Shown here piece by piece: positions 1-53,946 of a DNA stretch of 62,120 bases. Each line of letters opens with the position of its first letter. Positions within the stretch are counted from its first letter, which is position 1. The notes under the pieces were generated by a model. The model was not told the DNA's origin, did not search any database, and saw only the letters and a program-made list of their open reading frames with translations. The stretch lies in contig CAIOYH010000068.1 in NCBI GenBank assembly GCA_903862465.1, positions 66,280 to 128,399 on the forward strand. Reading direction: 5' to 3'. This DNA is from an uncultured bacterium (GTDB lineage Bacteria > Bacteroidota > Bacteroidia > Bacteroidales > CAIWKO01). A program made the translations under genes and the position numbers.

Positions 1-168
1 GTCCGGGTGCGCAGCAGCTCCGGTCGCTAAATTATGGGCATAAGCCGCTTTAAAAGCTTCCACTTCTGCCTTAAATTTTACATCATCCTCATAAACAGCA
101 GCTTCGTTTGTCAACACATAATCTACGGAGGCATACATTGTTTGGTCTGCCTGTTGTGGTCCTGTCAT
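1..168 (-). CDS. Hypothetical protein H1, N-terminal part only (runs off the left edge); predicted helical
   Basis: Not in the ORF track. ATG at 168 after an A-rich leader reads MTGPQQADQTMYASVDYVLTNEAAVYEDDVKFKAEVEAFKAAYAHNLATGAAAHPD with no stop to base 1; consensus promoter at 208-238. Confidence 0.65.
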   Translation of the reverse strand, partial: MTGPQQADQTMYASVDYVLTNEAAVYEDDVKFKAEVEAFKAAYAHNLATGAAAHPD

Positions 169-207
169 AATATTTTTTTTTAATGAATAACTTCTATTTT
201 GAAAATG

Positions 208-238
208 CAAAAATACTACTATTTTCATTATCTGCAAA
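208..238 (-). promoter_or_regulatory. Bacteroidota housekeeping promoter for H1
   Basis: Minus strand TTTG (238-235), 19-nt spacer, TATTTTTG (215-208): matches the -33/-7 consensus TTTG-N19-21-TAnnTTTG. Confidence 0.7.
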
Positions 239-342
239 AAAATATCAATAATTTTTTTAAAACATTTTTATTCATTCATAATCAACAACATATAACCATA
301 TTCCGTATGTAAAATAACTACTTTAATGCCAAATTCAACCCT

Positions 343-577
343 ATCAATGTACGTTTTATGACAATCAATGTACATAAAATGACGATCAATGTACGTTTTA
401 TGACAATCAATGTACGTTAGATGGCAATCAATGTACGTAAAATGGCGATCAATGTACGTAAAATGACGATCAATGTACGTAAAATGACGATCAATGTACG
501 TGAGATGACGATCAATGTACGTGAGACGACAATCAATGTACGTGAGATGACAATCAATGTACATTAAATGACGATCA
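343..577. repeat. Tandem array A1: 11 x 21 bp, consensus ATCAATGTACGTAAAATGACG
   Basis: ATCAATGTAC starts at 343, 364, 385 ... 553 (exact 21-bp steps), with a partial unit at 574; substitutions only. Confidence 0.97.
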
Positions 578-629
578 GTTTTCGTCTCTCATCACATAGA
601 AGTCAAAACTCGACTCCAAATAGACATTC

Positions 630-1271
630 TTAAAACTTCACAAAAAAAGCCAAAACCCCCAACACCACCAAAACGCCTCCTGTGATGAGGCGTTCGTGAT
701 GTTCGAGGAAATGGGAGTTTATGCGCTGTGTGCCTTTTATGCCTATATAGACTAGCACCAACATCAGCATGACGGTGGTTAGGGTATATACCGCCGAAAC
801 AATAAAGATGCCGTTCCAACCTATCAAACCGGCTTGAAAGTAATAGGCTTCGATTTCGATGCAGGGCGTCAAAAACATGGCTAGGCTCAAACTGCTGAGG
901 ATGGCAACCTTCGATTTGGTGTTGCTGCGGCTTTTGGGCATGCCGTGTTCGTGATGATGATGGTGGTGGTGATGGTTCGAGATAAAATTCACGATGATAT
1001 ACACCAAGCCTATTCCCACTAAAATGGCGGGCGCGATATAGGTCATGATTACGTTATAGCTGTCGGCGAGTTTGATGCCCACAAAGCCTACAATGATGCC
1101 AATTATCACGGTGCTCAGGGTATGCGCAAAGCCCGTGATGGCGGTGGCGCCCAAGGTTTCGCTCACAGTCCATTTCTCTGTTTTGCCAATGGCGATGAGC
1201 GGTATCCAATGGTTGGGAATGGAGGCATGTATCAAACTCAAGAGAAGACTGCCGATGAATATTTGCCACAT
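630..1271 (-). CDS. His-rich multi-pass membrane protein, nickel/cobalt transporter-like (HoxN/NixA/RcnA/UreH-like superfamily)
   Basis: About 6 hydrophobic segments; N-terminal HASIPNHW motif; HHHHHHHHEH loop; PCIE motif. Confidence 0.65.
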   Translation of the reverse strand: MWQIFIGSLLLSLIHASIPNHWIPLIAIGKTEKWTVSETLGATAITGFAHTLSTVIIGIIVGFVGIKLADSYNVIMTYIAPAILVGIGLVYIIVNFISNHHHHHHHHEHGMPKSRSNTKSKVAILSSLSLAMFLTPCIEIEAYYFQAGLIGWNGIFIVSAVYTLTTVMLMLVLVYIGIKGTQRINSHFLEHHERLITGGVLVVLGVLAFFVKF

Positions 1272-1295
1272 AATGTTGTGTTTTTTTGTTAATGA

Positions 1296-2273
1296 TTAAA
1301 GCGGTTTTTCCACCAAGAAATAAACTCCCGTGTTGATGACGCCTTCTTCTTTTATGTTGAAATTGCTTTGTTGAAACAGTTTGCGCCATCCTTTTGGGGA
1401 GGTCAACGATAAGCAAAATAGATTAAAGACCGAGAAAGTAGCAGCACTCGGAACAAAAACGACGAGCAAGAATTTGCCGCCCGGTTTCAACACTCTGTTG
1501 ATTTCTTTCAATCCGTCGAGTTTGTATTTGCCCAAATGGTCCATCATATAGGAGCTGATGGCAGCATCGAAGGTGGCGGTGGCGAACGAAATGTCGGTGA
1601 TGTCGCCTTGTTTGATTTCGACGCGGTCTTGGATGCCTGCAATTTTCACATTGCGTTCCAAGAGGGCTTTGCCTCCGTTTTCGATATAGTCGGAATCGAA
1701 ACGGTCGAAGGCAACGATGTGGCTGTTTTTCATCACTTTCGATAATTCGAGCGTGGTGCGTCCCGACCCGCAACCGGCATCGAGAATCAAATCGTTGTCG
1801 CCCGCAAACAAATCTACAAAAGGCAGGGTCATATAGGCGTCTCTCTTCGACTTCCGGAGCATATAATTCCCGGCAAACAAATTCAAGCTTATCAGAAAAA
1901 AGATTAAAGAAAGCCACACCAAGTTGGGATTGTAATAATATACCCATATAGTTGCCATCAAGAAAACACTGCCGATGAGCCAATAGATGTTCATCCATCC
2001 ATAGGACCATCCAAAATAGAGTTTGCCTTCGAGTTTGCGCATCTTGCGCTTTTCAAATAAATTGTATTTCAGTTTTTCGGGCGAGATAAAATACGCCGAG
2101 ATGAGCAGGGTGCACGCAATGATGATATGCGCTAATGCAAATAAAAATACCATGCCCGAGAAGACTTTCAATTGTGGCAGATGGATGTAAATCATCACTG
2201 CTACGATAATTCCTACCACGCCCATGATCCATGGATGACCATGACCTTTTCCTTTTTTTTCTGTTGTTTTCAT
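1296..2273 (-). CDS. Class I SAM-dependent methyltransferase with N-terminal transmembrane domain
   Basis: LDAGCGSGRT motif I, GDITDISF and LKPGGKF motifs; about 4 TM segments in the first 135 aa. Confidence 0.85.
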   Translation of the reverse strand: MKTTEKKGKGHGHPWIMGVVGIIVAVMIYIHLPQLKVFSGMVFLFALAHIIIACTLLISAYFISPEKLKYNLFEKRKMRKLEGKLYFGWSYGWMNIYWLIGSVFLMATIWVYYYNPNLVWLSLIFFLISLNLFAGNYMLRKSKRDAYMTLPFVDLFAGDNDLILDAGCGSGRTTLELSKVMKNSHIVAFDRFDSDYIENGGKALLERNVKIAGIQDRVEIKQGDITDISFATATFDAAISSYMMDHLGKYKLDGLKEINRVLKPGGKFLLVVFVPSAATFSVFNLFCLSLTSPKGWRKLFQQSNFNIKEEGVINTGVYFLVEKPL

Positions 2274-2337
2274 AAGTTTGTTTTTTTGGTTAAATCTCTT
2301 TGTGGCTTTGCAGCCGATTAGTAATTATGGTGAGATT

Positions 2338-3276
2338 TTAAGCCGGACGTATCGGAATCAGAATTTCGCGTTCTATGGTTTCGGATGGTTTGTGGGCAGG
2401 ATTTTCGGCATAAATTTCATAACCTACAATTTCTTTTATCGCATATCCGCTTTCGGGAATCCACCCATGACTGAAAAATGCAAGACTTTTTACCGTTGAA
2501 AACAAATTTCCCTGAAAGGCATAAGAGGCATAAAACCCATCGGGCACTTTCGTGAGACTTGCTTCGCGCGGCAATTTCTCCATGGCAGGAACCGTAATGC
2601 CCGCCCAATATCTGCATTTTTCAATTGAAGTGATAAAAGGAATATCCAACAACATGCCCACAAAGCGCGTTTCGGCGGTGAGCAATCCCCGCGGAGCCGC
2701 CCATTGGCATAGTTTGCGATAGGCAAGCGAAATGGCATCACTTTTATCTAAGCAGGTGCTTTGATATACCAAATCGAAGCCTTGCACTCTTTTTGTTGAA
2801 ATAATCACTTTATCGTTCCAATCCATGATTTCGTCCATTGAAAAATCTCGAATGCAAAGATCGTTGGTATTTATCAAAGAGGTTTTGCCATTCTTGCTAT
2901 TCGTTTTGCCTAAGTTGCGATATTGTTCGTTGGATAATTGTCTGTATTCTATAGCACTTACGTCAAAGAAGTTTTTGAAAGCACGCGAAAAGGTGGAAAG
3001 GGAGGTGAATCCGCTCCTATCGGCGAGGTCGGAAACGGGCACATCGGGAAAAACTCGCAAGTAATGCGCTATGCGTTCCAAGCGCAAACGGATGATATAT
3101 TGTTTGGGAGTTTCGCCCACAAAATGCGAAAACATGCGCTGAAAATGAAAGGGCGAATAATGGGCTACATCTGCCAATCGTTGCAAGGAAAGGTCACCTT
3201 CGAGGTTGATTTGAATATATTCCAACACTTTTCGGATATAGATTCCTGTGGCTTTGTCGTCTTCGGTGTGGTGCAT
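2338..3276 (-). CDS. AraC-family transcriptional regulator with C-terminal GyrI-like ligand-binding domain
   Basis: N-terminal double HTH (LSLQRLADVAHYSPFHFQRMF; SGFTSLSTFSRAFK); GyrI-like C-terminus (KCRYWAGITV, GYEIY). Confidence 0.9.
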   Translation of the reverse strand: MHHTEDDKATGIYIRKVLEYIQINLEGDLSLQRLADVAHYSPFHFQRMFSHFVGETPKQYIIRLRLERIAHYLRVFPDVPVSDLADRSGFTSLSTFSRAFKNFFDVSAIEYRQLSNEQYRNLGKTNSKNGKTSLINTNDLCIRDFSMDEIMDWNDKVIISTKRVQGFDLVYQSTCLDKSDAISLAYRKLCQWAAPRGLLTAETRFVGMLLDIPFITSIEKCRYWAGITVPAMEKLPREASLTKVPDGFYASYAFQGNLFSTVKSLAFFSHGWIPESGYAIKEIVGYEIYAENPAHKPSETIEREILIPIRPA

Positions 3277-3329
3277 GGATGTTGGTTTTTTGATGTTTGC
3301 TGTTACATTATATATATTGTATGATTACA

Positions 3330-4223: not shown

Positions 4224-4378
4224 GAGGGATGTTTATATTTATGATCTAAGAGTATTTTGCAAAGATAGGGAGATTTTTTTAATGGTTAAATTGTTCTATG
4301 GTTTTATTGTTGATTTGAAATATAGGTATGTTGGGAATGATTTTTATTCTTTAGTTCGTTATGAAAAGTCTTTCTTTT

Positions 4379-4470
4379 GGGACTAAAGTCCCTTAGAGTG
4401 TTTTTATTACTTGCCCTAGCCTTAAGGCTAGGGTAATTCAAAAACGTCTTGTTTGCCGGGCTTTAGCCCG
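4379..4470. repeat. Three-hairpin REP/REPIN-like extragenic element
   Basis: GGGAC-TAAA-GTCCC (4379-4392), central CCCTAGCC-TTAA-GGCTAGGG stem (within 4411-4436) and CGGGC-TTTA-GCCCG (4457-4470). The outer hairpins are near-inverted copies of each other. Confidence 0.7.
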
Positions 4471-4505
4471 AAATATATTCTTTATTTTTATTTTTCAAAG
4501 TGTAT

Positions 4506-4958: not shown

Positions 4959-4979
4959 AGTTGATTTATCTATATAAAA

Positions 4980-5036
4980 ACATAGACACATAAAATTCTT
5001 CTTAATAGAAAAACCTATGTGCCTATGTGTCTATGT
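4980..5036. repeat. Extragenic inverted repeat (13-bp arms) between fumC and dtd
   Basis: ACATAGACACATA (4980-4992) is the exact reverse complement of TATGTGTCTATGT (5024-5036); an extra CTATGTG half-copy lies beside it. Confidence 0.7.
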
Positions 5037-5048
5037 GGTAATAATACC

Positions 5049-6431: not shown

Positions 6432-6576
6432 TTTTATAGATTTTTTTTTAGGTACAAACGTATGAATTTTTTCTCTATTACGATGAAAAAAATTGTACTA
6501 TTTTAATAAATATCAATTTTTTTATGTGTTTTTGACATGGATATGAAAAATTTTTAGTACTTTTACAAATAAAAAA

Positions 6577-8736: not shown

Positions 8737-8751
8737 ACAAAAACCTGCATA

Positions 8752-9059
8752 CATATTGCAGGGGTATGACATAGTCATCCCACAAATGTAAAATCATATT
8801 GCAGGGGTATGACATAGTGTTCGCGGAAACCCGCGGACATATTGCAGGGGTATGACATAGTGCTCGCGGAAACCTGCGGACATATTGCAGGGGTATGACA
8901 TAGTGCTCGCGGAAACCCGCGGACATATTGCAGGGGTATGACATAGTGTTCGCGGAAACCCGCGGACATATTGCAGGGGTATGACATAGTGTTCGCGGAA
9001 ACCCGCGGACATATTGCAGGGGTACGACATAGTGTTCGCGGAAACTTGCGAGCATATTT
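8752..9059. repeat. Tandem array A2: 43-bp period, 24-nt arm CATATTGCAGGGGTATGACATAGT plus hairpin GTTCGCGGAAACCCGCGGA
   Basis: CATATT at 8752, 8795, 8838, 8881, 8924, 8967, 9010, 9053. Six near-identical units; the first unit keeps the arm but has a different 19-mer. Confidence 0.97.
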
Positions 9060-15315: not shown

Positions 15316-15527
15316 AATGCAGTTGTATATGCCCATCCCTGCCGAGGGTGATGCACTAATACAGTTGTCGGGGATAGTTCCGCACGAGCGGAATGCTCCA
15401 ATACAGTTGTCGGGGATAGTTCCGCACAAGCGGAATGCTCCAATACAGTTGTCGGGGATAGTTTCGCACGAGCGGAATGCCCCAATACAGTTGTATAGGA
15501 TAGTTTCGCACGAGCGGAATGCTCCAA
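15316..15527. repeat. Tandem array A3: 42-bp period, consensus AATACAGTTGTCGGGGATAGTTCCGCACGAGCGGAATGCTCC
   Basis: Units at 15358, 15400, 15442, 15484, plus a divergent unit at 15316; internal hairpin TTCCGC-ACGA-GCGGAA (stem substituted to TTTCGC in the last two units). Confidence 0.95.
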
Positions 15528-15753: not shown

Positions 15754-16086
15754 ATGAATACACAACAAATGAATCGGAACAGTCCCCTTATGATAACCAT
15801 AAAACAATTGGTGCATAATGTAGCACCCAATGCTAAAGTGATAGTGTATGGTTCGTATGCGCGTGGGGAACAAACAAGCAATTCGGATGTAGATCTGTTG
15901 ATATTGCTCGATAAAAATATCGTAACGTTTAAGGAGGAACAACAAATTAAGTCGCCTTTATATGATTTAGAATTTGAAACGGGACAGATTATTAGTCCGC
16001 TTATATTATCTCAAATTGCTTGGGAACAAAGGCACCGTATCACCCCGTTTTATGATAATGTTTCTAAAGAAGGAATAGAATTATGA
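15754..16086 (+). CDS. MNT (minimal nucleotidyltransferase) antitoxin
   Basis: YGSYARG...SDVDLL motif, 110 aa, 4-bp overlap with the HEPN gene. Confidence 0.92.
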   Translation: MNTQQMNRNSPLMITIKQLVHNVAPNAKVIVYGSYARGEQTSNSDVDLLILLDKNIVTFKEEQQIKSPLYDLEFETGQIISPLILSQIAWEQRHRITPFYDNVSKEGIEL

Positions 16087-16481
16087 ACTCTGACGACATA
16101 AAAGAACTAGTTGCATATCGTCTCCAACGGTCGAAAGAGACCAAAGCCGAAGTGCCGACTTTAATAAAACTTGGATATTATAACACGGCGGTCAACAGAA
16201 TTTATTATGCCTGTTTTTATGCCGTAAATGCTTTATTACTGAAAGATGGAATAGCAGCCAAAAGGCACGATGGAGTGCGACAAATGTTAGGATTACACTA
16301 CGTTAAAACAGGTATGATACCCAAAGAGCTTGCCAAGTATTATACAGATTTATTTGATAGGCGCCAAACGGGGGATTATGATGATTTCCTTGACTATGAC
16401 AAAGAAACGGTTGAAGAATTGTATAAACCCGCCAATGATTTTATCAAGGCGATTGAAGACATAATCTCTACTAAAATGTAA
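16083..16481 (+). CDS. HEPN-domain toxin (MNT-HEPN toxin-antitoxin pair)
   Basis: AVNRIYYACFYA, KRHDG and RQTGDYD motifs; coupled to MNT. Confidence 0.9.
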   Translation: MNSDDIKELVAYRLQRSKETKAEVPTLIKLGYYNTAVNRIYYACFYAVNALLLKDGIAAKRHDGVRQMLGLHYVKTGMIPKELAKYYTDLFDRRQTGDYDDFLDYDKETVEELYKPANDFIKAIEDIISTKM

Positions 16482-24717: not shown

Positions 24718-24748
24718 TTTGCCAATAGAAAAATACTTCGTAATTTTG
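24718..24748 (+). promoter_or_regulatory. Consensus Bacteroidota promoter for H2
   Basis: TTTG (24718-24721), 19-nt spacer, TAATTTTG (24741-24748). Confidence 0.75.
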
Positions 24749-24807: not shown

Positions 24808-25512
24808 ATGGGAAACGTTTCTGGAGTAGTTACTCCAACAAACAAAACAAATTTTGAAGAAGCGGTTGCAGCCGCTGCGGCAGAATTGCCATTTTTGAAA
24901 AGCGCCACTAAGAAGGAACGTATGGAGCTAGTGAAAATGGGTTTAAAAAACACAGGCTTTGTCAATGCTGTTTACACTGGCATTGGTGCTCACTTGGGCA
25001 TATTGCCTTCGGATTTTAATATGGCAGCATTCACCGAAGACATCAAGTTGAAACAAGAGTTGCCATATCTCAAACAACTCTTGGTAGGGTTGGTTGAAAA
25101 AATGGACGATACCGATTTGTTGTTGGGCAACGACTTGATGGTAGCGGCTCTTTATGTTTATTCATTGATGAAGGTAGCAGCAAAAAATAATGCTGAAATC
25201 AAAACATTGGTGGATGAAATTGCAGAAAATTGGATAAACTCAGGCAAAAAGAAAGCAAACACCGTTTTCTCGATTGCTTCTAGCAGCACGATCACCGTTG
25301 CTAATGTTGTTGCTTCTAAGTCATTTTTGAACAACGGAATCACGCTATTAAAATTAAAAGTAGGCGCTGATCTTGTTTCAAAATTTCCTTTAGCAGATCC
25401 TATTACCGTTGACCCGGGGAATTCAGTAAAAATTCCTAAGGGTTGGACGATTATTGAAGTTACGAATCTTAGCGGAACGGCGGCAGGTAGCTTTTCCATT
25501 AAGATTAAGTAA
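24808..25512 (+). CDS. Hypothetical protein H2 (helical N-domain + beta-sandwich-like C-domain)
   Basis: 234-aa ORF with its own promoter and terminator; no signal peptide; amphipathic helices to about aa 150, then beta-rich. Confidence 0.85.
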   Translation: MGNVSGVVTPTNKTNFEEAVAAAAAELPFLKSATKKERMELVKMGLKNTGFVNAVYTGIGAHLGILPSDFNMAAFTEDIKLKQELPYLKQLLVGLVEKMDDTDLLLGNDLMVAALYVYSLMKVAAKNNAEIKTLVDEIAENWINSGKKKANTVFSIASSSTITVANVVASKSFLNNGITLLKLKVGADLVSKFPLADPITVDPGNSVKIPKGWTIIEVTNLSGTAAGSFSIKIK

Positions 25513-25541
25513 ATACGTGAGGTTATTTTAATCTTTAGTGG

Positions 25542-25578
25542 CAAATTCGCATCCTTTGGGTGCGAATTTGTTATTTTA
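25542..25578 (+). terminator. Intrinsic terminator after H2
   Basis: CAAATTCGCATCC-TTT-GGGTGCGAATTTG stem, then TTATTTT. Confidence 0.8.
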
Positions 25579-25601
25579 TGGAGTTCCTTTTAGGAAATAT
25601 T

Positions 25602-26107
25602 GGAACTATATAGGTGCATTGCCGGAGCAATATAAGTGCATTGCCGGAGCTATATAGGTGCATCGTTGGAGCTATATAGGTTCATCGCCGGAGCTTTATA
25701 GGTGCCTCGTCGGAGCTATATAGGTTCATCGTCGGAGCTATATAGGTGCATCTTTGGAGCTGTATAGGTGCATTGTCGGAGCTATATAGGTTCATCGTCG
25801 GAGCTATATAGGTGCATCTTTGGAGTTATATAGGTGCATCGTTGGAGCTATATAGGTTAATCGCCGGAGCTTTATAGGTGCCTCGTCGGAGCTATATAGG
25901 TTCATCGTCGGAGCTGTATAGGTGGATCTTTGGAGTTATAAAGGTGCATCTTTGGAGTTATATAGGTGCATCGTCGGTGCTATATAGGTTCATCGTCGGA
26001 GCTACATAGGTGTGTCGTTGGAGCTCTATAGGTGCATCGCCGGAGCTATATAGGTGTGTCGTCGGAGCTACATAGGTCTATCATCGGAGCTATGTAGATG
26101 ATAAATT
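25602..26107. repeat. Tandem array A4: 22 x 22 bp (plus degenerate ends), consensus GGAGCTATATAGGTGCATCGTC
   Basis: Unit starts every 22 bp from 25602 to 26086; core palindrome CTATATAG; no indels; units 3-7 are echoed by units 11-15. Confidence 0.98.
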
Positions 26108-32516: not shown

Positions 32517-34391
32517 ATGTTATTAAAGAAATATGATATAATTGTTGTTGGGGCTGGACATGCAGGATGTGAAGCAGCATCTGCTGCAGCAACTATGGGG
32601 TCGTCAGTTTTATTAATAACAATGAATTTGAATTTAATCGCTCAAATGTCATGTAATCCTTCTATAGGTGGCGTTGCAAAAGGTCAAATTGTCAGAGAAA
32701 TAGATGCGTTGGGGGGCAAAACCGGAATTATTACGGACGAAACAATGATACAATTTCGTATGCTAAATCGTTCCAAAGGACCTGCAATGTGGAGTCCTCG
32801 TGCGCAATGTGATAGAATGAAATTTTCTGAAAGATGGCGGTTGACTCTTGAAAAAAATCCTAATATAGACTTTTGGCAAGATAGTGTGCAGAAGGTCGTC
32901 ATTAAAAATAATAAAGTTGTTGGAGTTGAAACATTACTCGGAATAAGAATATTAGGAAAAGCTGTTGTTCTTACCAATGGGACATTTTTAAATGGGTTGA
33001 TTCATATCGGTGAAAAGAATTTCAGCGGAGGACGTATGGGAGAACAGGCATCTTTCGGAATAACAGAGTCGTTGGTTATGGCAGGTTTTGTTACAGACAG
33101 GTTGAAAACAGGGACTCCTGTTCGGGTTGATGGCAGGACAATAGATTTTAATAAACTTGAAGAACAACCGGGAGATTTAATTCCAGAAAAATTTTCTTTC
33201 ACAAAAACAAATTTCCTAAAAAAACAAAGAAGCTGTTACTTAGCCTATACAAATGCTGATGTACATTCGCTCTTGAAAGGAGGGTTTGAAAAATCACCTT
33301 TGTTCAATGGTATTATTAAAGGGAAAGGACCTAGATATTGTCCGTCTATCGAGGATAAAATTGTAAGGTTTGCAGAAAAAGAAAGACATCAACTTTTTGT
33401 TGAACCAGAGGGTTGTGATGGCATAGAATACTATATTAATGGATTTTCTTCTTCTTTGCCCGAGGAGGTTCAGTTAAACGCTTTGAGAAAAGTATCAGGG
33501 TTTAAAAAAGCCAAGATTTTTAGACCGGGTTATGCTATCGAATACGATTACTTTCCACCGACTCAACTCAAGGCGACGTTAGAAACAAAAGTTGTTGAGA
33601 ATTTATATTTTGCGGGACAGATTAATGGAACAACGGGTTATGAAGAAGCCGCAGCACAGGGTTTGATGGCTGGAATAAATGCGCATAATAGAAATTTAAA
33701 AAAACCCGAATTTATATTAAAACGTTCAGAAGCATATATCGGAGTTTTAATTGACGATCTAATTACTAAGGGTGTTGATGGGCCTTATCGAATGTTTACA
33801 TCTCGCGCTGAATATAGAATATTATTACGGCAAGATAATGCTGATTTACGATTGACTAATTTGGGGCATAGGTTGGGTTTGATATCTGAAAAAAGAAACC
33901 AAGAGTGTGAAAAAAAAAGAACTCAAATTGGACAGTTAATACAATTCATTAAAAAAGAAACCATATTGCCATCCCAAATTAATGATTTATTATCGAGTGT
34001 TGGAACTCCTCAGATATCTCAGGGAACAAAAATTTATAACATATTATTGAGACCTCAAATTGACATACAATCTTTGTTACAGTGTTCTACGGAATTTAAG
34101 CAATTTGTGCAAGAAAAGAAATTGCAATCGCAAGAAATTTTGAATCAAACAGAAATTCTTATTAAATACAAATCTTATATAGATAAAGAAAAAGAAATTG
34201 CTGAAAAAATAATTAAACTAGAAGAAATTAAATTACATGATGACTTTAATTATAAAGAATTAAAAGCCTTGTCTATTGAGGCTAGAGAGAAGTTAAGTAG
34301 AATAAAACCAAAAACAATTGGACAAGCATCTAGAATTAGTGGTGTTTCTCCATCAGATGTAACTATACTTTTAGTACATTTGGGGCGATAA
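32517..34391 (+). CDS. mnmG: tRNA U34 carboxymethylaminomethyl modification enzyme MnmG (GidA)
   Basis: VVGAGHAGCEAA, MSCNPSIGG, GPRYCPSIEDK, GQINGTTGYEEAAAQG motifs. Confidence 0.99.
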   Translation: MLLKKYDIIVVGAGHAGCEAASAAATMGSSVLLITMNLNLIAQMSCNPSIGGVAKGQIVREIDALGGKTGIITDETMIQFRMLNRSKGPAMWSPRAQCDRMKFSERWRLTLEKNPNIDFWQDSVQKVVIKNNKVVGVETLLGIRILGKAVVLTNGTFLNGLIHIGEKNFSGGRMGEQASFGITESLVMAGFVTDRLKTGTPVRVDGRTIDFNKLEEQPGDLIPEKFSFTKTNFLKKQRSCYLAYTNADVHSLLKGGFEKSPLFNGIIKGKGPRYCPSIEDKIVRFAEKERHQLFVEPEGCDGIEYYINGFSSSLPEEVQLNALRKVSGFKKAKIFRPGYAIEYDYFPPTQLKATLETKVVENLYFAGQINGTTGYEEAAAQGLMAGINAHNRNLKKPEFILKRSEAYIGVLIDDLITKGVDGPYRMFTSRAEYRILLRQDNADLRLTNLGHRLGLISEKRNQECEKKRTQIGQLIQFIKKETILPSQINDLLSSVGTPQISQGTKIYNILLRPQIDIQSLLQCSTEFKQFVQEKKLQSQEILNQTEILIKYKSYIDKEKEIAEKIIKLEEIKLHDDFNYKELKALSIEAREKLSRIKPKTIGQASRISGVSPSDVTILLVHLGR

Positions 34392-34407
34392 TGTTTCACG
34401 TGAAACT
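34392..34407. promoter_or_regulatory. parS centromere site 2
   Basis: TGTTTCACGTGAAACT immediately after the mnmG stop, 15/16 match. Confidence 0.9.
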
Positions 34408-34414
34408 ATAAAAA

Positions 34415-35308
34415 ATGGAACAAATAAATACCTGTGCAATTTGTGGAAAAGGCAACTTTTCTGTTTACTTAGAAAGCAGCGATTATTTTTTAAGTAAAGA
34501 AAGGTTTACTATTGTAACCTGCGACAATTGTGAATTTTTGTTTTTGAATCCACGCCCCGATGCGGTGGAAATTTCTAACTATTATAAATCGGAAGAATAT
34601 ATTTCTCATTCAAATACAAAAAGAGGAGTAATAAATAAAGTTTATCATATTGTTCGGAAAAGAAATCACAAAAAAAAATACAACTTAATTCAAAATCTCA
34701 AAAATAAGGGGACACTTCTAGATATAGGTTGCGCTACTGGGGAATTTATAAATTACTGTAGGAATAACGGATGGACAGTAGCGGGTGTTGAACCTGACGA
34801 GGATGCTCAAAAGTTTGCAAAAACACAATATAATTTAAATGTGTACCCCGAAAGTTTATTAAAAGAAATTCCAACAAATAAATTTGATGTGATTAGTATG
34901 TGGCATGTTTTAGAGCATGTTCATCTACTTGAGCAGAGAATTATGCAGCTTAAAATGTATTTAAAAAACGATGGGGTTGCTATTATTGCAGTGCCAAATG
35001 CAGCGTGTAAGGATGCGGAAATTTATAAAGAGTTTTGGGCGGGGTATGATTTGCCGCGCCACCTTTATCATTTTACAAAGAAATCAATTTTAGAACTTTT
35101 TAAAAAAAACGACTTTGCTTTAATTGAAACCATACCTATGAAATTCGATTCGTATTATATTAGTATGTTGAGCGAAAAATATAAAACGGGGACGGGCAAT
35201 GTGGTAAAGGCGTTTTTAAATGGTTATAAATCGAACAGGTGGGCAAAAAGAAATAATAACAATTATTCAAGCCAGATATTTATATTAAAGAAGAATAACG
35301 TCAAATAA
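34415..35308 (+). CDS. Class I SAM-dependent methyltransferase with N-terminal Zn-ribbon-like Cys pairs
   Basis: CAIC...CDNC, LDIGCATG, WHVLEH, PRHLYHF motifs. Confidence 0.88.
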   Translation: MEQINTCAICGKGNFSVYLESSDYFLSKERFTIVTCDNCEFLFLNPRPDAVEISNYYKSEEYISHSNTKRGVINKVYHIVRKRNHKKKYNLIQNLKNKGTLLDIGCATGEFINYCRNNGWTVAGVEPDEDAQKFAKTQYNLNVYPESLLKEIPTNKFDVISMWHVLEHVHLLEQRIMQLKMYLKNDGVAIIAVPNAACKDAEIYKEFWAGYDLPRHLYHFTKKSILELFKKNDFALIETIPMKFDSYYISMLSEKYKTGTGNVVKAFLNGYKSNRWAKRNNNNYSSQIFILKKNNVK

Positions 35309-35425
35309 AGCGTTTAAACAAAATATGTCCCCACTGTAATATGTATTGCTGTTTTATTTAAAAAAACCTTTCAGGCGCTTTAATTTTAAGCCAAAATTTC
35401 TCAACAAGTTACAGTTTGAAAAACA

Positions 35426-38400
35426 ATGATTGAAAAAAAGAGTATCTTAAAAAGAATTTTTTTAGTTTTAGGCGTTGTCGTATTTTTAGTCTTTGTAAAT
35501 CTAATTTTAAAAAAACAGTTTTTGTCTTCACAAAATGATAGTGAGACGAAAACTAAGAATATTGAAAATATATTAAGAGAGAAAGAAAAACTTTCAATTA
35601 ATAATTTAGAAAAACTTGTCAGCAAGTCCGAAAATAATTTAGCGTATCTTTTATTTAGTGATAAAAACTTGTCAAGGCTATATGATGACGAAAAGATTTC
35701 TTTCTTTTTGTATAGAAGCGATAGCTTAGTCTATTGGTCAAGTAATACTGTTTCGTTGGATTCAATTCAACAGGATAAGATATCTGACAGTTGTTTTGTT
35801 AAATTATCAAACGGGTGGTACGAATTAATAAAGAGGGGAAAAGGCAATCTTATTGTCATTGCAGCAATTTTAGTTAAATCTGAATATAAATACGAAAACG
35901 ACTATCTTCTTAATGACTTTAATGATGATTTCTGTATTTCAGCAGAGAATGCAACGGTTTCTAAAACAGGGAAGCAATTTATAATAAAAAATTATGAAGG
36001 AAAATCACTTTTTTCCATAGCATATAAAACCAATCCATTTTTAAGCAATTTGCTTGAGATTATTATTTTTATTCTTTATCTTTATGCATTTTTAGCATTA
36101 TTGTATTTGGTGTACTTAATGTGTTTCGTTTGTTTTATTAATCCGTCACAAGTAGGCTTTAGAAAGCTTGCTTTTTTAATATTAATTGTGATTGCAAGGA
36201 TATTGCTTTTTTATTTCAAAATTCCTCATGATTTATACAATTTCAAAGTATTTAGCCCGATATATTTTGCGTCATCAGAATGGTTGCCATCACTTGGCGA
36301 TCTTTTAATAAACACAATAATACTTTTCACTATTGCAGTGTTTTTATACAAGAACCCGTTTTACGAACAGATTAAAATACTCAATAAATGGATTTCGATA
36401 CTTCTTTCTTTTTCACTTTTTATTTTCTCTGCGCTTCTGTTTTTCTTTGTTATTGACCTACTTCATTCAATCGTTATTGATTCTACAATTTCATATAATT
36501 TGAATCAGCTTTTTGCAATTAATTTCTTAAGCATATTAGGCTTTTTCATCATTTCGCTTACTATTGTATCTTATTTTTTGATAAGTCACTCGATTATTGA
36601 CTTTTTATTTTATTCAACTAATAAAATTATTCACTTATTGACTGGAGTTCTTCTTGCATGTCTTCTTCTTTTTATACTTCATCCGTATAATTCATTTCAT
36701 GACATACAAATTATACTTTGTTTTGTTGTTTTCAATGGTATTTATTTATTCTTTCGATTTAGCAAGGGCAATAAATTTCTTTTTTATGAAATTGTAATTT
36801 ATTTACTATTGTTTACGTATTTGACATATTATACTATAAATAAATGTAATACTATTAAGGAAATAGAAAAGAGGAAGTCATTCGCACAAAAATTGTCTTC
36901 AGGAGAGGACCCTTTAGCTGAATATATTTTTCGTAATACTCAAAAAGATATTTTAGCGGATAGCATTTTAAAGCAGAAACTCGCCAAGCATTTATTAACT
37001 GAAAATGATATAAGTGATTATGTTACTAAAAAGTATTTTTTTGGATATTGGGATAAGTATAAAATACAAATAACAGTTTGCAATAATTATGATTGCCTGC
37101 TTATTGAACAAACCCAGGAAAAACGAAATTGTATTATGTATTTTGATGATTTGATACGAAGTCTCGGTAAAAACACAAGTTGTAAAAATCTATTCAGTAT
37201 TAACGATGGAAGTGGGGGAAACAATTATGTTTCGAAATTTGAATTTAATGTGGATTCTTCGTCTATTTTCGTATTTATAGAATTGAATTCGAAGTTTATT
37301 CCGAAAGACTTGGGTTATCCAGAACTGCTAATTGATAAAAAACTTTTTATTAATACAGACTTATCGAGTTATTCTTATGCAAAATACGTGAATAATACAT
37401 TGATTGATGCTTATGGAAAGTATTACTATTCATCATCCTTTTTTGTTCAAGATTCTAGAAGTATAGAGGAAACGTATGTTTTCAATAAAGATGGGTATAA
37501 TCATATGTTATATAAGATTGACAACAATTCATTTCTAATAATAAGTAAAAAAAACGGGAATGTGCTTGATACCCTTGCGCCCTTTTCAATAATCTTTACT
37601 ATATTTTGTATCACACTAATATTCGTTTTAGTCATTTCTAGTTTTTCATCTAATGTAAAACTTATACAATTTGATTTTAGAAATCGGTTACAAGTTTCAA
37701 TGGTTTCTATTATTTTAGTTTCCTTTATAATTATTGGAATTTCAACTTATTATTTTATTAGGAATTTAAATGACAACAAAAACACTGATATTTTAAGCGA
37801 AAAAGCCATGTCAATTCTTCTTGAGTTACAACCGGGTATGTATGAATTCGATACGATAAACAATGATCAGCAAATGGCGTTGTCTAATCGGTTGAATAAA
37901 CTGTCAAACGTGTTTTTTACTGACATAAATGTATTTGATATAAAAGGAGATTTGATTGCGTCGTCTCGTTCTCAAATATTTACAGAGGGCTTAATTTCAA
38001 AGAAAATGAACTCCTTAGCTTACCGTCAAATGATTACTGAGAAAACGACACAGTTTATACAAAAAGAGAAAATAGGGAAATTGGAATATTTCTCTGCTTA
38101 TGTTCCTTTTTATAATAGAAAAGGGAAGGTCTTGTATTATGTAAACCTACCCTATTTTGCGAAAGAAAGTGAGTTAAAAAAAGAGTTCTCCTCTTTTCTT
38201 ATAGCATTTATAAATATCTACCTATTCTTGATAGCAATGACGGTATTAATTGCATTGTTCGTAGCAGGACGAATTACTCGTCCCCTAAATATTATTCGAG
38301 AAAAGATTAGCAATTTGAAACTTGGCATCAAAAATGAAAAGATTAATTGGCCAAGGAGGGATGAAATTGGCAGTCTAATTTCTGAATACAATAGAATGAT

Positions 38401-39127
38401 AGATGAACTCTCAAATAGTGCAGGACTTCTTGCTCGTTCAGAAAGAGAAATTGCATGGCGCGAGATGGCAATGCAAGTAGCTCATGAAATAAAAAATCCA
38501 TTAACCCCAATGAAATTGAGTGTACAATATTTAGATAAAGCATGGAAAGATAAAGCACCTGATTGGGAAATACGGCTTGAGAGGTTTACTAAAAATATGG
38601 TGGAACAAATAGATTCGCTATCTACTATTGCCTCGGAATTTTCTTATTTTGCAAAGATGCCTGAGCCTCATAATGAAATTATTTCTCTTACTGATATTGT
38701 AAAAAGTTCCGTAGAAATTTTTAAATCTAATTCAAATATCAATGTTTATTTAGTTTATAGCACACTAGAAAACATTAAAATATTTGCTGACAAAAAGCAA
38801 ATAATGAGGATATTAAATAACCTATTAAACAACGCAATACAAGCGATTAAAAGTAATATCCAAGGAAATATCGAAGTGGGAATTTCTACACGTGAAGGGA
38901 AAGTACTTATTTATATCAAGGATAATGGCGAAGGGATCCCGGATGAAATGAAAGATAAAATTTTCATTCCAAATTTCTCTACAAAATCTGAAGGAATGGG
39001 CTTAGGTTTAGCGATTGTAAGTAGTATAATTGAGAATTATGATGGACGAATTTGGTTTGAATCAAATACTGAAGAAGGAACAACCTTTTTTATTGAATTG
39101 CAACTATATGAATCTGGTAAGGATTAA
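35426..39127 (+). CDS. Large multi-TM sensor histidine kinase (HAMP, HisKA, HATPase)
   Basis: DEIGSLISEYNRM (HAMP), AHEIKNPLTP (H box), NLLNNAIQA, DNGEGI, FSTKSEGMGLGL; no cognate response regulator adjacent. Confidence 0.93.
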   Translation: MIEKKSILKRIFLVLGVVVFLVFVNLILKKQFLSSQNDSETKTKNIENILREKEKLSINNLEKLVSKSENNLAYLLFSDKNLSRLYDDEKISFFLYRSDSLVYWSSNTVSLDSIQQDKISDSCFVKLSNGWYELIKRGKGNLIVIAAILVKSEYKYENDYLLNDFNDDFCISAENATVSKTGKQFIIKNYEGKSLFSIAYKTNPFLSNLLEIIIFILYLYAFLALLYLVYLMCFVCFINPSQVGFRKLAFLILIVIARILLFYFKIPHDLYNFKVFSPIYFASSEWLPSLGDLLINTIILFTIAVFLYKNPFYEQIKILNKWISILLSFSLFIFSALLFFFVIDLLHSIVIDSTISYNLNQLFAINFLSILGFFIISLTIVSYFLISHSIIDFLFYSTNKIIHLLTGVLLACLLLFILHPYNSFHDIQIILCFVVFNGIYLFFRFSKGNKFLFYEIVIYLLLFTYLTYYTINKCNTIKEIEKRKSFAQKLSSGEDPLAEYIFRNTQKDILADSILKQKLAKHLLTENDISDYVTKKYFFGYWDKYKIQITVCNNYDCLLIEQTQEKRNCIMYFDDLIRSLGKNTSCKNLFSINDGSGGNNYVSKFEFNVDSSSIFVFIELNSKFIPKDLGYPELLIDKKLFINTDLSSYSYAKYVNNTLIDAYGKYYYSSSFFVQDSRSIEETYVFNKDGYNHMLYKIDNNSFLIISKKNGNVLDTLAPFSIIFTIFCITLIFVLVISSFSSNVKLIQFDFRNRLQVSMVSIILVSFIIIGISTYYFIRNLNDNKNTDILSEKAMSILLELQPGMYEFDTINNDQQMALSNRLNKLSNVFFTDINVFDIKGDLIASSRSQIFTEGLISKKMNSLAYRQMITEKTTQFIQKEKIGKLEYFSAYVPFYNRKGKVLYYVNLPYFAKESELKKEFSSFLIAFINIYLFLIAMTVLIALFVAGRITRPLNIIREKISNLKLGIKNEKINWPRRDEIGSLISEYNRMIDELSNSAGLLARSEREIAWREMAMQVAHEIKNPLTPMKLSVQYLDKAWKDKAPDWEIRLERFTKNMVEQIDSLSTIASEFSYFAKMPEPHNEIISLTDIVKSSVEIFKSNSNINVYLVYSTLENIKIFADKKQIMRILNNLLNNAIQAIKSNIQGNIEVGISTREGKVLIYIKDNGEGIPDEMKDKIFIPNFSTKSEGMGLGLAIVSSIIENYDGRIWFESNTEEGTTFFIELQLYESGKD

Positions 39128-48915: not shown

Positions 48916-48918
48916 ATT

Positions 48919-49608: not shown

Positions 49609-49693
49609 GATTGATGGATATGTTTTATATCAAGATGGAACTTCCTTTAATAAAAAGAGATTGCGTGAATTTATTTGTTAACCACTTTCGTTT

Positions 49694-51531: not shown

Positions 51532-51535
51532 GTTA

Positions 51536-51543
51536 CAAAAGTA
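51536..51543 (-). promoter_or_regulatory. -7 promoter element of the R-M operon, possibly giving a leaderless mRNA
   Basis: TACTTTTG on the minus strand; its final G (51536) is 5 nt before the A of the endonuclease ATG (51531). Confidence 0.55.
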
Positions 51544-51819
51544 ATAAAAATATTAATTCGTTTCATTGTTTTTTTTAGTTGTCCCAAACCTTCAGAATAG
51601 TAACCACCTTTAGGTTAAACGGCAAAAACCACTTCTATTTATTGCTCCATTCTTTCTATAATTCTATATATAAACAAAATTCTTCCACAAAGATACATAT
51701 TTCTAATCACATCCTATCAACTAATTTTACGAATCAAACTAAAAATGAAATCTGTCATTAATTCAGTTTTTAAAAAGTGCTTATTTTTAAAGCGTATTAT
51801 TTTTTTGTACTAAAATGCA

Positions 51820-52380
51820 TTAATCCTTAAATTCAAAAACTAATCGAAAACGTGAATTCCCAACATCATCTTTATATAATTCTTTCTTTTCAATAAAGCT
51901 TGGCGTTAATTTACTACGAAGGTAAAATCCTAAAAAGGCAATTGTAAATGAAACGGCGATAAACAATATCCCAATTAAAAGTACAATTATGAATCTAATG
52001 GTCTCCATACCTTCCGCAGATACTAAAAGTTGTTGAATTCCAGGAAAAAGTCCATATAATCCGGCAATACATGCCCAACCATAATATCGAGCTTTATGTG
52101 TTGCTGCAAAATAAATCATGGGTGCGGTCCAAATAATTCCTACGAAACTTTGCGATAAAACTAATAATAGAATCAAAATAGAAAGTAGAACAAGAAATAG
52201 AATGTGTAAAAATTTATATTTTGTCAAAGCCCGAGCCGATGGCTGAGACTGTATAATGCTTGCAATTTTTAGTCCCCCATGAAATTCTTGATTTAGCTCT
52301 TCGTAAATTGCTTGCTTCGAAACACCAAGTTTGATTTTTTCTTGCGCTAGTTTTTTAATTTGCTTATTATCAATTGTCAT
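51820..52380 (-). CDS. Hypothetical membrane protein (about 4 TM)
   Basis: 186-aa AT-rich ORF; soluble N-terminus followed by hydrophobic segments. Confidence 0.75.
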   Translation of the reverse strand: MTIDNKQIKKLAQEKIKLGVSKQAIYEELNQEFHGGLKIASIIQSQPSARALTKYKFLHILFLVLLSILILLLVLSQSFVGIIWTAPMIYFAATHKARYYGWACIAGLYGLFPGIQQLLVSAEGMETIRFIIVLLIGILFIAVSFTIAFLGFYLRSKLTPSFIEKKELYKDDVGNSRFRLVFEFKD

Positions 52381-52587
52381 TCAATAATTATTTTTTCAAA
52401 GTTAAACAAAAATACGTGGCTAAAGTGTTATTGTCTTTTTCTAGCATTGTCTATAAGTCTTTTATTTATACTATAAGCTAACATAAAGCCATCCAATTTC
52501 ATCCCCTTTTATATCCCAACAAAATTACTTATTTTTCAATCAACTCCTATTTTATTTTACATTAAATATTTTGCATCCCCTATAAGG

Positions 52588-53145
52588 AAAATGTTAGGTA
52601 TTATAACGGCAACCATTATCGTTATAATGACTACCATTATCGTTGTAACGGCAACCATTATCGTTATAACGGCAACCATTATCGTTATAACGACTACCAT
52701 TATCGTTATAACGGCAACCATTATCGTTATAACGACTACCATTACCATTGTAACGACTACCATTGCCATTATAACGACTACCATTATCGTTATAACGACT
52801 ACCATTGCCATTATAACGACTACCATTATCGTTATAACGACTACCATTGCCATTATAACGACTACCATTAACATTATAACGACTACCATTATCGTTATAA
52901 CGACTACCATTATCGTCATAACGACTACCATTATCGTCATAACGACTACCATTATCGTTATAATGACTACCATTGCCATTATAACGACTACCATTGCCAT
53001 TATAACGACTACCATTGCCATTATAACGACTACCATTATCGTTATAACGACTACCATTGCCGTTATAACGACTATCATTAAAATTATAACGCCTAACATC
53101 ATCGTTGTAACGACAATGCTAGGCGTTGTAATTCCTAAATATTTT
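52588..53145. repeat. Tandem array A5: 22 core + 4 degenerate units of 21 bp, consensus ACCATTATCGTTATAACGACT, with inverted termini
   Basis: ACCATT every 21 bp from 52612 to 53053; palindrome CGTTATAACG in the main variant; ends AAAATGTTAGGTATTATAACG (52588) and CGTTGTAATTCCTAAATATTTT (53124) are near-inverted copies. Confidence 0.98.
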
Positions 53146-53175
53146 TTTTAAATTTAAACCGTAGGAAGGTTTTGT

Positions 53176-53946
53176 TTACAGTACAACAAAATAAATCCAG
53201 TCGCCAAAGTTGTAGTTAGAAGAATCTATACCATCGGCAACTTGAAAGATGCGTTTATGCGTTTTGGTGCTTGCCGAACGTGTTGCGGGTTCTTCCACAT
53301 TGGTGACAATAGTGCCGCCACCTGCTTTGCGGGGAATGGTCAGGATACTTGCTTCGCGCATGCCGTAAATGCCTCCCACCTTTAAACCGCATAGCACAAA
53401 TTCGGTTTCCAAGCCAAAAAGAGGTTCCATCCAGATTTCGGGTGGAACACCTTTTTCAGTAGTCAAACCATATTGGCGAATATAGCCTGCACGAAGGTCC
53501 ACTGCTTTTGTGCTAACCCAAACTTCGCCATTGCCCAAAGGATAGGCGTCGAATATTTTATTGGTAGCGCTTTTTGGTGATTTCAGATAATAGCCGGCAA
53601 TCTTAACCATATTAATGCCCAAATTGATATCTCCCGTTGCAATTGCTTTTGCACGGGCAGCAGTTTGAATAAAAAATGCATTGGCATTGTAGCCCGTGCA
53701 CAATAGATTCATCTTTGAATTTACCAATTCTTTGGTGGATGTTGGTGGAATCATCTTGAATTTGTTATGTTCGGTATTCGTGTTGGTGCCCAACAGATGC
53801 ATGTCTGTATCATCGTGGGGAATGTCTGCCAACTCTGTTATACCGGTAGTGTTTTGGCGCGCTGCCTTCGCCACATTTTCTTCAACCGGGTCTTTGGGAT
53901 TTGCCAAAAGAACAACAATTGAATTTGCTGATTTTAATTCTGTCAT
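53176..53946 (-). CDS. Hypothetical protein H3 (helical N-domain + fibronectin type III-like C-domain)
   Basis: 256-aa ORF; helical N-half ending GDINLGINMVKIAGYYLK, then beta-strands (GEVWV...YIRQY...W...FVLCGLKVGGIYGMR) with an Fn3-like pattern; -7 element TACATTTG at 54026-54019. Confidence 0.8.
   Translation of the reverse strand: MTELKSANSIVVLLANPKDPVEENVAKAARQNTTGITELADIPHDDTDMHLLGTNTNTEHNKFKMIPPTSTKELVNSKMNLLCTGYNANAFFIQTAARAKAIATGDINLGINMVKIAGYYLKSPKSATNKIFDAYPLGNGEVWVSTKAVDLRAGYIRQYGLTTEKGVPPEIWMEPLFGLETEFVLCGLKVGGIYGMREASILTIPRKAGGGTIVTNVEEPATRSASTKTHKRIFQVADGIDSSNYNFGDWIYFVVL

Follow-up and report, generated by a model that had tools for sequence, protein, structure and literature searches.

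Tandem arrays with a 21-bp period and the small orphan genes beside them in an uncultured freshwater Bacteroidota

Does a small uncharacterised gene lying next to a run of 21-22-bp tandem repeats form a unit with it, and if so, what might such a unit be? The question is raised by a 62,120-nt stretch of DNA (C68:66280-128399, where C68 denotes contig CAIOYH010000068.1), hereafter the window, which belongs to the 4.23-Mb, 230-contig metagenome-assembled genome (MAG) of an uncultured freshwater Bacteroidota and whose right edge is the contig end. Three arrays of the window (A1, A4 and A5) each adjoin a gene (H1, H2 and H3, respectively), and a fourth gene, H4, is cut by the right edge. An original prediction made from this DNA took them for cassettes of an undescribed system, in which each protein binds or maintains its own array. 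We find that the linkage between genes and arrays is real, that the side on which the array lies is fixed per gene family, and that about a third of the arrays in this genome are tied to small orphan proteins, which fall into at least 15 families.

A genome-wide class of arrays with a common period

Using Tandem Repeats Finder (TRF), we delimited A1 at positions 343-577 (period 21, 11.2 copies, 87% matches), upstream of H1 and 174 bp from its ATG at position 168. A4 (25602-26097; period 22, 22.5 copies, 82% matches) lies downstream of H2, starting 89 bp past its stop codon, with degenerate units continuing to ~26107. A5 (52601-53114; period 21, 24.5 copies, 87% matches) spans 52588-53145 when its degenerate units are included, and its edge is 30-61 bp from the H3 stop codon, on the downstream side. 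Within each array the units run head-to-tail without spacers, and the units of the three arrays bear no relation to one another. Per-position conservation delineates a core of ATCAATGTACGT in A1, with 3-5 positions differing among units, of GGAGCTATATAGGT in A4 and of TTATAACGACTACCATT in A5, and the palindromic cores read from the sequence are TACGTA/GTAC in A1, CTATATAG in A4 and CGTTATAACG in A5. The features on which the original prediction was built are thus real: three non-coding tandem arrays of unrelated units, each with a palindromic core and each within ~30-175 bp of an uncharacterised gene.

We then scanned the whole genome with TRF, counting an array as strong if it had at least 3 copies and at least 60 bp. 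Arrays of period exactly 21 number 360, those of periods 20 and 22 number 22 and 12, and those of periods 42, 43 and 41 number 56, 19 and 7, with nearly none at periods 31-32 and 52-53; the period spectrum is therefore a sharp spike at 21 with a second at 42-43. Strong arrays total 365, and a looser class (periods 20-22, 41-43, 63 and 84) comprises 486 arrays covering 87.5 kb, or 2% of the genome, 93% of them intergenic. A1, A4 and A5 are samples of this genome-wide class and not exceptional cassettes. As a separate observation, periods 7 (48 arrays) and 14 (57 arrays) are also unusually common in the genome.

The arrays share a length as well as a period. Copy numbers at period 21 are bimodal: 2-3 copies form a tail such as chance would give, and a separate peak stands at 10-12. 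The mode at period 42 is 5 copies, which amounts to the same total length (medians of 235 and 242 bp for periods 21 and 42; typical arrays measure ~200-280 bp). At other periods, frequency only decays with length and no distinct mode appears. Dyad symmetry is enriched in the units, with arms of at least 5 bp in 26% of units versus 10% of shuffled ones, and arms of at least 6 bp in 40% of period-42 units versus 7% of shuffled ones. We found neither strand skew nor polarity of decay or growth along arrays oriented on the adjoining gene, no heptamer (7-bp) or half-period substructure inside the units, and no match in Rfam. Coding heptad repeats, in which 21 bp would stand for 7 codons, were considered and rejected: 4.0 of 6 frames are open in the units versus 3.7 in shuffled units, only 2.1 of 6 frames are open across real arrays, and periods 20, 22 and 43 occur. 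Since open frames are no commoner than in shuffled units and some periods are not multiples of three, the arrays are non-coding.

Families of orphan genes and the arrays beside them

In our own rough gene call of 3,307 genes, 13% lie next to an array, at no more than 400 bp. Against this background, 16 of the 23 members of the H1 family (collected with jackhmmer) have an array, within 723 bp and always upstream; all five members of the H2 family have one, always downstream; 17 of 23 members of the H3 family have one, on opposite sides in its two subfamilies; and in the five-member H4 family, each of the four testable members has one upstream, at 140-310 bp. The recurring pair of orphan gene and array that the original prediction proposed is hence borne out, and its three special cassettes dissolve into 365 arrays. 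Clustering of the proteome recovered ~15-20 clusters of proteins of 200-320 amino acids (aa) that are enriched beside arrays, with a consistent side per cluster (Fisher p down to 1.6e-7). A six-frame search with hidden Markov models (HMMs) of the families yielded 150 full-length family loci, 107 of them with an array within 600 bp; of the 43 without one, 26 lie within 700 bp of a contig end. The period, too, is largely specific to the family, K01 having 41-43 at 11 of 11 loci, all upstream, and most other families having 21, although the rule is not absolute, as H2 orthologues carry periods of 22, 43 and ~21. The neighbourhood of a family locus holds one family gene and one array, the other neighbours being unrelated. 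Terminator-like sites separate gene from array in 45% of downstream-type modules, including that of H2, versus 32% after ordinary genes, and separate array from gene in 27% of upstream-type modules versus 18% of controls.

The pairing extends to relatives. Homologues in other genomes carry their arrays in the same position, as one would look for in a true pair: H1 homologues in the genus have an upstream period-21 array, 150-345 bp away, at 12 of the 12 loci with enough upstream sequence; the H2 orthologues of G010, G017 and G005 each have an array (3/3); H3-type genes have an array of the period-21 class 26-290 bp downstream at all 16 testable loci in 7 MAGs; and the H4 family has an upstream array at 11 of 11 testable loci in the genus. 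Further afield, a profile of the H3 superfamily matched 14,682 proteins among 1.84 billion representatives, including hundreds of full-length ones of ~205-256 aa, and where the DNA around distant representatives was usable, an array lies upstream in five cases of five, with a period of 21, 84 or 105. Within the genus the spread of the families is patchy (H1 and H3 in 7 of 18 genomes each, H4 in 5 of 18), and the H3 family was not found in 43 sampled genomes outside it. Array density in relatives, estimated from small samples, is 0-5 per 100 kb in the genus, and is zero in the single genomes sampled from another genus (60 kb) and another family (40 kb).

One syntenic site, the interval between a TonB-dependent receptor gene and a DUF4175 gene that houses H2, lets gain and loss be followed. 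In the window's own genome (G000) it holds H2 and 22.5 units of 22 bp; in G010, a 96% identical H2 with the identical unit in 11.6 copies; in G017, a 50% identical H2 with an unrelated array of period 43; and in G005, an H2 broken by a stop codon, with short degenerate pieces of array. G011 has a K02-type (H1-like) gene with its own upstream array at this site, G003 has an orphan array remnant alone, and in five other genomes the site is empty, its flanking genes being 170-330 bp apart. Gain and loss here affect gene and array jointly.

The sequence of the units changes faster than their arrangement. The arrays orthologous to A1 in G010 and G011, where the proteins are 97% identical, keep the core and vary at positions that also vary within A1, and a G011 gene piece (cut by the contig) that is 86% identical to H3 residues 144-256 comes with the A5 unit bearing one change in 21 positions. 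H1 and its 88% identical paralogue share the contiguous core TACGTACA, the other unit positions having changed, and the arrays of g0144 and g2232 share the contiguous core GAAATAACGAACG. Units descend with the gene and drift afterwards. The family-wide motifs GCCAWAA, GGTGCCG and AACGAT, picked by eye, were dropped, as a label-permutation test was not significant overall; AACGAT in H3-type arrays alone reached nominal significance (4/16 units, p = 0.035, uncorrected for 12 groups). The expected covariation of array and protein sequence therefore holds for the closest paralogues alone and is absent at the level of family motifs.

As for the genes themselves, the window contains the 5' end of H1 (1-168, minus strand), a 298-aa gene of family K14/K02 whose remainder lies to the left of the window (whole gene C68:65554-66447); H2 (24808-25512, plus strand), complete at 234 aa and of family K17; H3 (53176-53946, minus strand), complete at 256 aa and of family K04; and the C-terminal 93 aa of H4 (61839-62120, minus strand), a gene of family K10 whose 5' end and expected upstream array lie beyond the contig end. 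H4 had been offered as a possible fourth member, and the linkage of K10 to upstream arrays confirms it as one. By direct reading, the complete genes have no signal peptide and have a Bacteroidota-type -7 box (TAnnTTTG) of their own 40-75 bp upstream of the start, in agreement with what had been predicted. The putative boxes are TAtTTTTG for H1 (208-215, minus strand), between A1 and the start codon, TAATTTTG for H2 (24741-24748, plus strand), 60 bp upstream of the start codon, and TAcaTTTG for H3 (54020-54027, minus strand), 74 bp upstream. A terminator-like hairpin followed by a U-run (25537-25582, plus strand; RNA fold -28.7 kcal/mol, z = -4.8), found in the terminator scan as well, stands between the H2 stop codon and A4.

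None of the four proteins has a Pfam match or, by sequence reading, a transmembrane segment, and no homology among them was detected with BLASTP, jackhmmer or hhalign. In place of the common fold that had been suggested there are four separate families, with no homology demonstrated among them, each with a helical N-terminus and a β-rich C-terminus. This layout is clearest in H3, whose AlphaFold 2 (AF2) model (predicted local distance difference test, pLDDT, of 78) consists of a helical bundle (residues 21-116) followed by a β-sandwich, identified as fibronectin type III (Fn3) by Foldseek and by profile search; the helical half has no match, including no informative one in the PDB. By hhalign, K04 is linked to K03, K05 and K09 (probabilities 90-98) and through these to K08 and K12. 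H1's cluster K14 joins K02 in profile comparison, and in families of the H1 type the β part, behind a helical N-terminus, is a prealbumin-like or CarboxypepD_reg-like sandwich, with weak CarboxypepD_reg matches in K01 and K02 and, for H1 itself, only a weak SpaA (prealbumin-like) match. For H2, which has four homologues among 5.8 billion proteins, the AF2 model is confident in the helical N-terminal domain (residues 1-145) and of low confidence in the β-rich C-terminus, and a fold search with it gave no match, including no informative one in the PDB; the shared helical-plus-β layout was thus upheld for H3, weakly for the H1 type, and not for the β domain of H2. Two members of the H2 family, g0538 and g2084, are ~160 aa long and consist of the helical domain alone, without the β-rich tail. 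Because both keep a downstream array, these short members suggest that the array is linked to the helical domain in particular. In a lake-water metatranscriptome (run X13), a 298-322-nt contig is ~96% identical to H2 at 24948-25245, as a strain variant would be; expression of this variant in the environment is thus probable, though the contig may stem from DNA carried over into the RNA library.

The H3 family has no relatives in IMG/VR, PHROGs and BFVD returned nothing beyond generic Fn3 matches, and PADLOC gave no meaningful match for these proteins. On these grounds we set aside a phage origin or a defence system, and the role as a decoy for phage proteins that the prediction had entertained found no evidence in the same four resources. 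The gene-plus-repeat arrangement itself was not found in Pfam, PHROGs, PADLOC, Rfam, the PDB or the literature searched, and the pairing of gene and array seems to be undescribed. In scale, the arrays account for 2% of this genome, and the arrangement recurs across a protein superfamily whose metagenomic members run into the thousands. Metagenome contigs with the helical-plus-Fn3 family (loci L085-L093) are mostly 1-3 kb long and often end inside an array; together with the arrays at contig ends in our genome (64 in number), this indicates that the arrays break short-read assemblies and that the genes are systematically under-assembled in MAGs.

What the arrays may be

A clue to function comes from regulators that stand in some modules elsewhere in the genome. 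Family K11, which recurs beside several modules, is an AraC-type regulator, and of the eight small LytTR-like genes that stand alone, seven are part of modules, in the order LytTR-array-K13/K06 gene or LytTR-K08-type gene-array; a LytTR gene and an array precede each of the four K13 genes. LytTR regulators bind 9-bp direct repeats with 12 bp between them, i.e., with a 21-bp period, and across systems the sequence of the repeats is poorly conserved while their length and spacing are strictly conserved (PMC6193735). By this analogy, the LytTR genes in the modules lend support to a reading in which the arrays act at the level of DNA, by binding protein.

The reading that we tentatively prefer, granting it somewhat less than an even chance, is that the arrays serve as DNA platforms on which protein binds at many sites, spaced at two turns of the helix. 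Each array would offer ~11 identical sites on one face of the helix, to which a sequence-specific protein encoded by the module would bind cooperatively. In some modules elsewhere in the genome the binder would likely be the stand-alone LytTR-type regulator, and in a few others possibly one of the AraC type; in two-part modules such as those of the window, it would presumably be the helical domain of the orphan protein. The resulting nucleoprotein complex would govern the promoter or gene next to it. Protein geometry would fix the spacing of the sites, with their sequence free to drift and homogenised within each array, and a common period combined with private sequences would follow from this. 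In its favour are the common period and length, the side and period set by family, the linkage within this genome and across others, the series of states at the H2 site, the LytTR genes in modules, the dyad symmetry of the units, the cores that the closest paralogues share, the non-coding nature of the arrays and the terminator-like sites between gene and array. We infer the binding of protein to DNA, the identity of the binder and the regulatory outcome alike. If the arrays are such platforms, many new and mutually orthogonal pairs of protein and DNA site would come to light, with a spacing rule built in, and genome organisation or regulation in a major environmental phylum would gain a new layer.

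A number of observations weigh against this reading, and the arrays that lack a gene are foremost among them. No recognised family locus lies within 600 bp of 255 of the 365 strong arrays, and many of these stand between housekeeping genes, so that arrays beside other genes, which had been named beforehand as evidence against a true pairing, are in part what we see. Of the 255, 96 are within 700 bp of a contig end, leaving one flank out of view, and the 152 that are contig-internal have ordinary genes such as frr, phoU and lipoprotein genes for neighbours, in all combinations of strands, convergent included. Gene-less arrays are distributed over convergent, tandem and divergent regions at 17/60/23%, versus 16/62/21% for long intergenic regions; for this reason we rejected the idea that the arrays are promoter elements. 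They equal gene-linked arrays in length and homogeneity, and short C-terminal gene fragments keep long, homogeneous arrays. In addition, several arrays exist in 2-3 dispersed copies that have 30-190 bp of flank in common and no gene. A twin of A5 at C81:3162-3586 has the same unit in 11.3 copies and, beside it, the final ~125 bp of a gene resembling H3 (63% aa identity); its array consensus is identical although the gene fragment has diverged. Likewise, C152:3942-4193, C152:53607-53858 and C190:368-619 share one unit in exactly 12.0 copies each and a common flank of ~160 bp upstream and ~90 bp downstream, the latter ending at a conserved TAtcTTTG -7 box beyond which the genes are unrelated; here, array plus promoter-like flank behaves as a dispersed repeat in its own right. 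As arrays survive where the gene is reduced to a fragment and are copied without it, they can persist and spread without an intact neighbouring gene.

Other counterpoints concern the proteins and the units. Searches with Pfam, profiles and folds found no recognisable DNA-binding domain in the orphan proteins, and the families of the H1 type are acidic (isoelectric point, pI, 5.3-6.2), those of the Fn3 superfamily being basic (pI ~9). Homologous families lie on opposite sides of their arrays. Unit similarity is at the random level below ~80% protein identity, with exceptions both ways; family-specific 6-mers were not significant overall in the label-permutation test (p = 0.13 and 0.06); and variable positions within the units are weakly clustered. 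The four window loci have no LytTR gene, none of the genome's nine being in the window. With just 10 AraC and 9 LytTR genes in the genome, we discarded regulators of these types as binders of all arrays in trans, nine LytTR genes being unable to serve 365 private arrays. Finally, 64 arrays touch contig ends in this short-read MAG, and the upper length limit near 300 bp may therefore be an assembly artefact; the scarcity of arrays of 4-8 copies is not explained by that limit.

The main rival, which we consider rather unlikely, is that the arrays are selfish or neutral minisatellites locked to one period, produced in dispensable intergenic DNA by a lineage-specific slippage or recombination 'ruler' of 21 bp, with the linkage to genes arising from block inheritance or duplication and from young, fast-evolving genes residing in such DNA. 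It would account for the two-thirds of arrays that stand without a family gene between ordinary genes, in the proportions of long intergenic regions and as long and homogeneous as the rest, for arrays that outlast genes and are copied without them, for copy numbers that vary among close relatives (22.5 vs 11.6), and for units that evolve near-neutrally and in which family-wide motifs were not detected. It does not sit well with an array side that is strictly, and a period that is largely, family-specific and that persists while the unit sequence turns over fully, nor with arrays kept beside homologues down to ~25-40% protein identity in unrelated metagenomes. The mode at 10-12 copies, where neutral length drift should give monotonic decay, the enriched dyad symmetry of the units, the LytTR genes embedded in some modules and the one site (G005) at which a pseudogene comes with a decayed array all speak against it as well. 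Should it be correct, the arrays would reveal a molecular ruler in replication or recombination. A common period and total length combined with private sequences, no strand bias or polarity, and a presence in every type of intergenic region would also suit structural DNA whose sequence is immaterial: bends in phase would shape a curved or superhelical segment of ~230 bp, to be read by a general nucleoid protein as an insulator, boundary or upstream activating element. We regard this as improbable, since other periods of whole helical turns (10-11, 31-32 and 52-53 bp) are rare, which indicates a 21-bp ruler rather than curvature alone; moreover, curvature alone leaves the family-specific linkage, geometry and period unexplained, and arrays of periods 20, 22 and 43 occur alongside those of 21 and 42.

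A mobile cassette that moves between intergenic hot spots, its array serving as a recombination or insertion structure recognised in trans, is suggested by the syntenic site that is, depending on the genome, empty or occupied by a module of H2 or K02 or by an orphan array, by the array-plus-flank units in 2-3 dispersed copies, and by the patchy spread of the families in the genus and their many gene fragments. It is nonetheless a decidedly poor candidate in our judgement, because no recombinase or transposase is consistently near family loci, neither terminal inverted repeats nor target-site duplications were seen at the boundaries compared, private sequences would demand recognition independent of sequence, and no relatives were found among viral contigs. 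Least probable of all, and very unlikely, is an array acting as RNA: its transcript would be cut into pieces of 21 nt, which would bind or regulate the adjacent protein or its mRNA, much as in type III toxin-antitoxin systems or guide-RNA arrays. The array-then-gene order of upstream-type families does recall ToxIN, dyad symmetry could give hairpins, and terminator-like sites between array and gene in upstream-type modules exceed the controls; yet the arrays of H2 and H3 are downstream, with a strong terminator between H2 and A4, and arrays occur in convergent regions too, show no strand bias and have no fixed orientation relative to the gene. Complementarity of units to their own gene is no greater than in controls, so an antisense or guide reading is rejected, there is no Rfam match, and the proteins are not ToxN/AbiQ-like. 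In the one small metatranscriptome, no contig covers any array, and as contigs break at arrays this is uninformative on their transcription.

Returning to the platforms, a broader formulation goes further and is more doubtful: that these are a so far unrecognised class of chromosomal two-part elements, at 100 copies per genome or more, in which a small helical-plus-β-sandwich protein and a private array of ~11 sites, set exactly two turns of the helix from one another, would form a self-contained and fast-diversifying nucleoprotein specificity pair. Their role would lie outside known regulators, partition, toxin-antitoxin and defence systems; they would be gained, lost and left to decay as a unit, with arrays able to spread alone; and they would occur in uncultured Bacteroidota and probably in other phyla. 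If this were true, bacteria would have their own equivalent of the way in which satellite DNA and the proteins that bind it co-evolve.

Surroundings in the window and comparison with known systems

Two further arrays of the window are orphans. A2 (8751-9058; period 43, ~6-7 copies, 97% matches), each unit of which has a small internal hairpin, CGCGG-AAAC-CCGCG, sits between the stop codon of RNase R (Pfam RNB) and a lipoprotein gene, without an adjoining family gene. A3 (15351-15527; period 42, 4.2 copies), with the internal hairpin TTCCGC-ACGA-GCGGAA, is ~230 bp upstream of overlapping nucleotidyltransferase (15754-16086) and HEPN (16083-16481) genes identified by Pfam; the two form an MNT/HEPN module of the toxin-antitoxin-like kind. 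Beyond A5, the next gene in the same direction is an open reading frame (ORF) for a 186-aa membrane protein (51820-52380, minus strand), which has no Pfam or PADLOC match and is outside all array-linked families. Directly beyond A1, the membrane protein encoded at 630-1271 gives a weak DsbD_2-like match, contains a loop rich in histidine (HHHHHHH) and has the look of a metal transporter. The stretch 34000-38000 is AT-rich (27-30% GC vs 40% for the genome) and holds a methyltransferase gene (34415-35308) and most of a gene for a 1233-aa HAMP/HisKA histidine kinase (35426-39127). The remaining genes of the window are those of an ordinary chromosome, e.g., RNase R, MnmG, a TonB-dependent receptor, a histidine kinase and α2-macroglobulin.

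Among known systems, the LytTR regulatory systems (HdrRM and BrsRM of Streptococcus mutans; AgrA and ComE type) resemble the present one in their direct repeats of 21-bp period and in a regulator gene that adjoins its repeats, as the small LytTR-like genes do in the array modules. In those systems two repeats lie just upstream of the -35 box, whereas here 6-25 contiguous units extend over ~230 bp or more; the window arrays have periods of 21-22 bp but 11-25 contiguous units, and A4 and A5 follow H2 and H3 on their downstream side, with ~200 bp left before the next gene. The partner in LytTR systems is a membrane inhibitor and here a cytosolic helical-plus-β-sandwich orphan protein, the sole membrane protein nearby being the unrelated 186-aa one after A5; H1-H4 have no LytTR or other Pfam domain, and no LytTR was found in the scanned neighbours in the window.

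Iterons and their Rep initiators (F, R6K, pSC101, P1) are direct repeats of ~19-22 bp phased at about two helical turns, beside the gene for the binding protein and with a replicon-specific sequence. Period, phasing, adjoining gene and private sequence are all matched here. Yet iterons mark one origin per replicon, whereas this genome has 365 strong arrays in 4.2 Mb, five of them among chromosomal genes of the window; the arrays are uninterrupted head-to-tail repeats, in contrast to iterons; and the adjoining proteins lack a Rep or winged-helix signature, H3 being a helical bundle with Fn3. The centromeres of type II partition systems (parC-ParR of R1 and pSK41; sopC of F, with 43-bp repeats) are tandem repeats of 11, 20 or 43 bp, on which a small dimeric protein encoded next to them assembles cooperatively into a higher-order scaffold. 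Tandem repeats with an adjoining small-protein gene are seen here as well. A ParM or ParA motor gene, expected of such a system, was found neither in the neighbourhoods of family loci nor among the window genes scanned with Pfam, and no ribbon-helix-helix or helix-turn-helix (HTH) signature was detected; the loci here are chromosomal and massively multi-copy, with the array upstream or downstream.

Type III toxin-antitoxin systems (ToxIN, CptIN, TenpIN) have 2-5.5 copies of a 34-45-nt repeat upstream of, and co-transcribed with, an endoribonuclease toxin. A short tandem array directly beside a small protein gene, with a locus-specific repeat sequence, is common to both; the present arrays differ in having 21-bp units in ~11 copies on either side of the gene, together with Fn3 or prealbumin-like proteins. 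PADLOC and Pfam gave no match to a toxin of the ToxN/AbiQ/CptN type, the fold of H3 is Fn3, and a terminator separates H2 from its array. As to CRISPR and TIGR, the units have no spacers, and no cas or Nop-domain Pfam match was obtained among ~23 window genes scanned, a subset of the ORFs. The system accordingly does not qualify as a LytTR regulatory system, an iteron/Rep origin, a ParR/parC partition system, a type III toxin-antitoxin system or a CRISPR or TIGR array; the prediction, too, could not place it in the CRISPR, TIGR-Tas or toxin-antitoxin classes. Bacterial variable-number tandem repeats (VNTRs) or minisatellites, such as the mycobacterial MIRU, are intergenic, vary in copy number among close relatives and come in many different periods per genome. 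The 22-bp unit with 22.5 copies here and 11.6 in G010 is in keeping with this, both being short-read assemblies whose counts may be collapsed; the arrays described here differ in keeping to one period and a characteristic total length and in their link to particular gene families.

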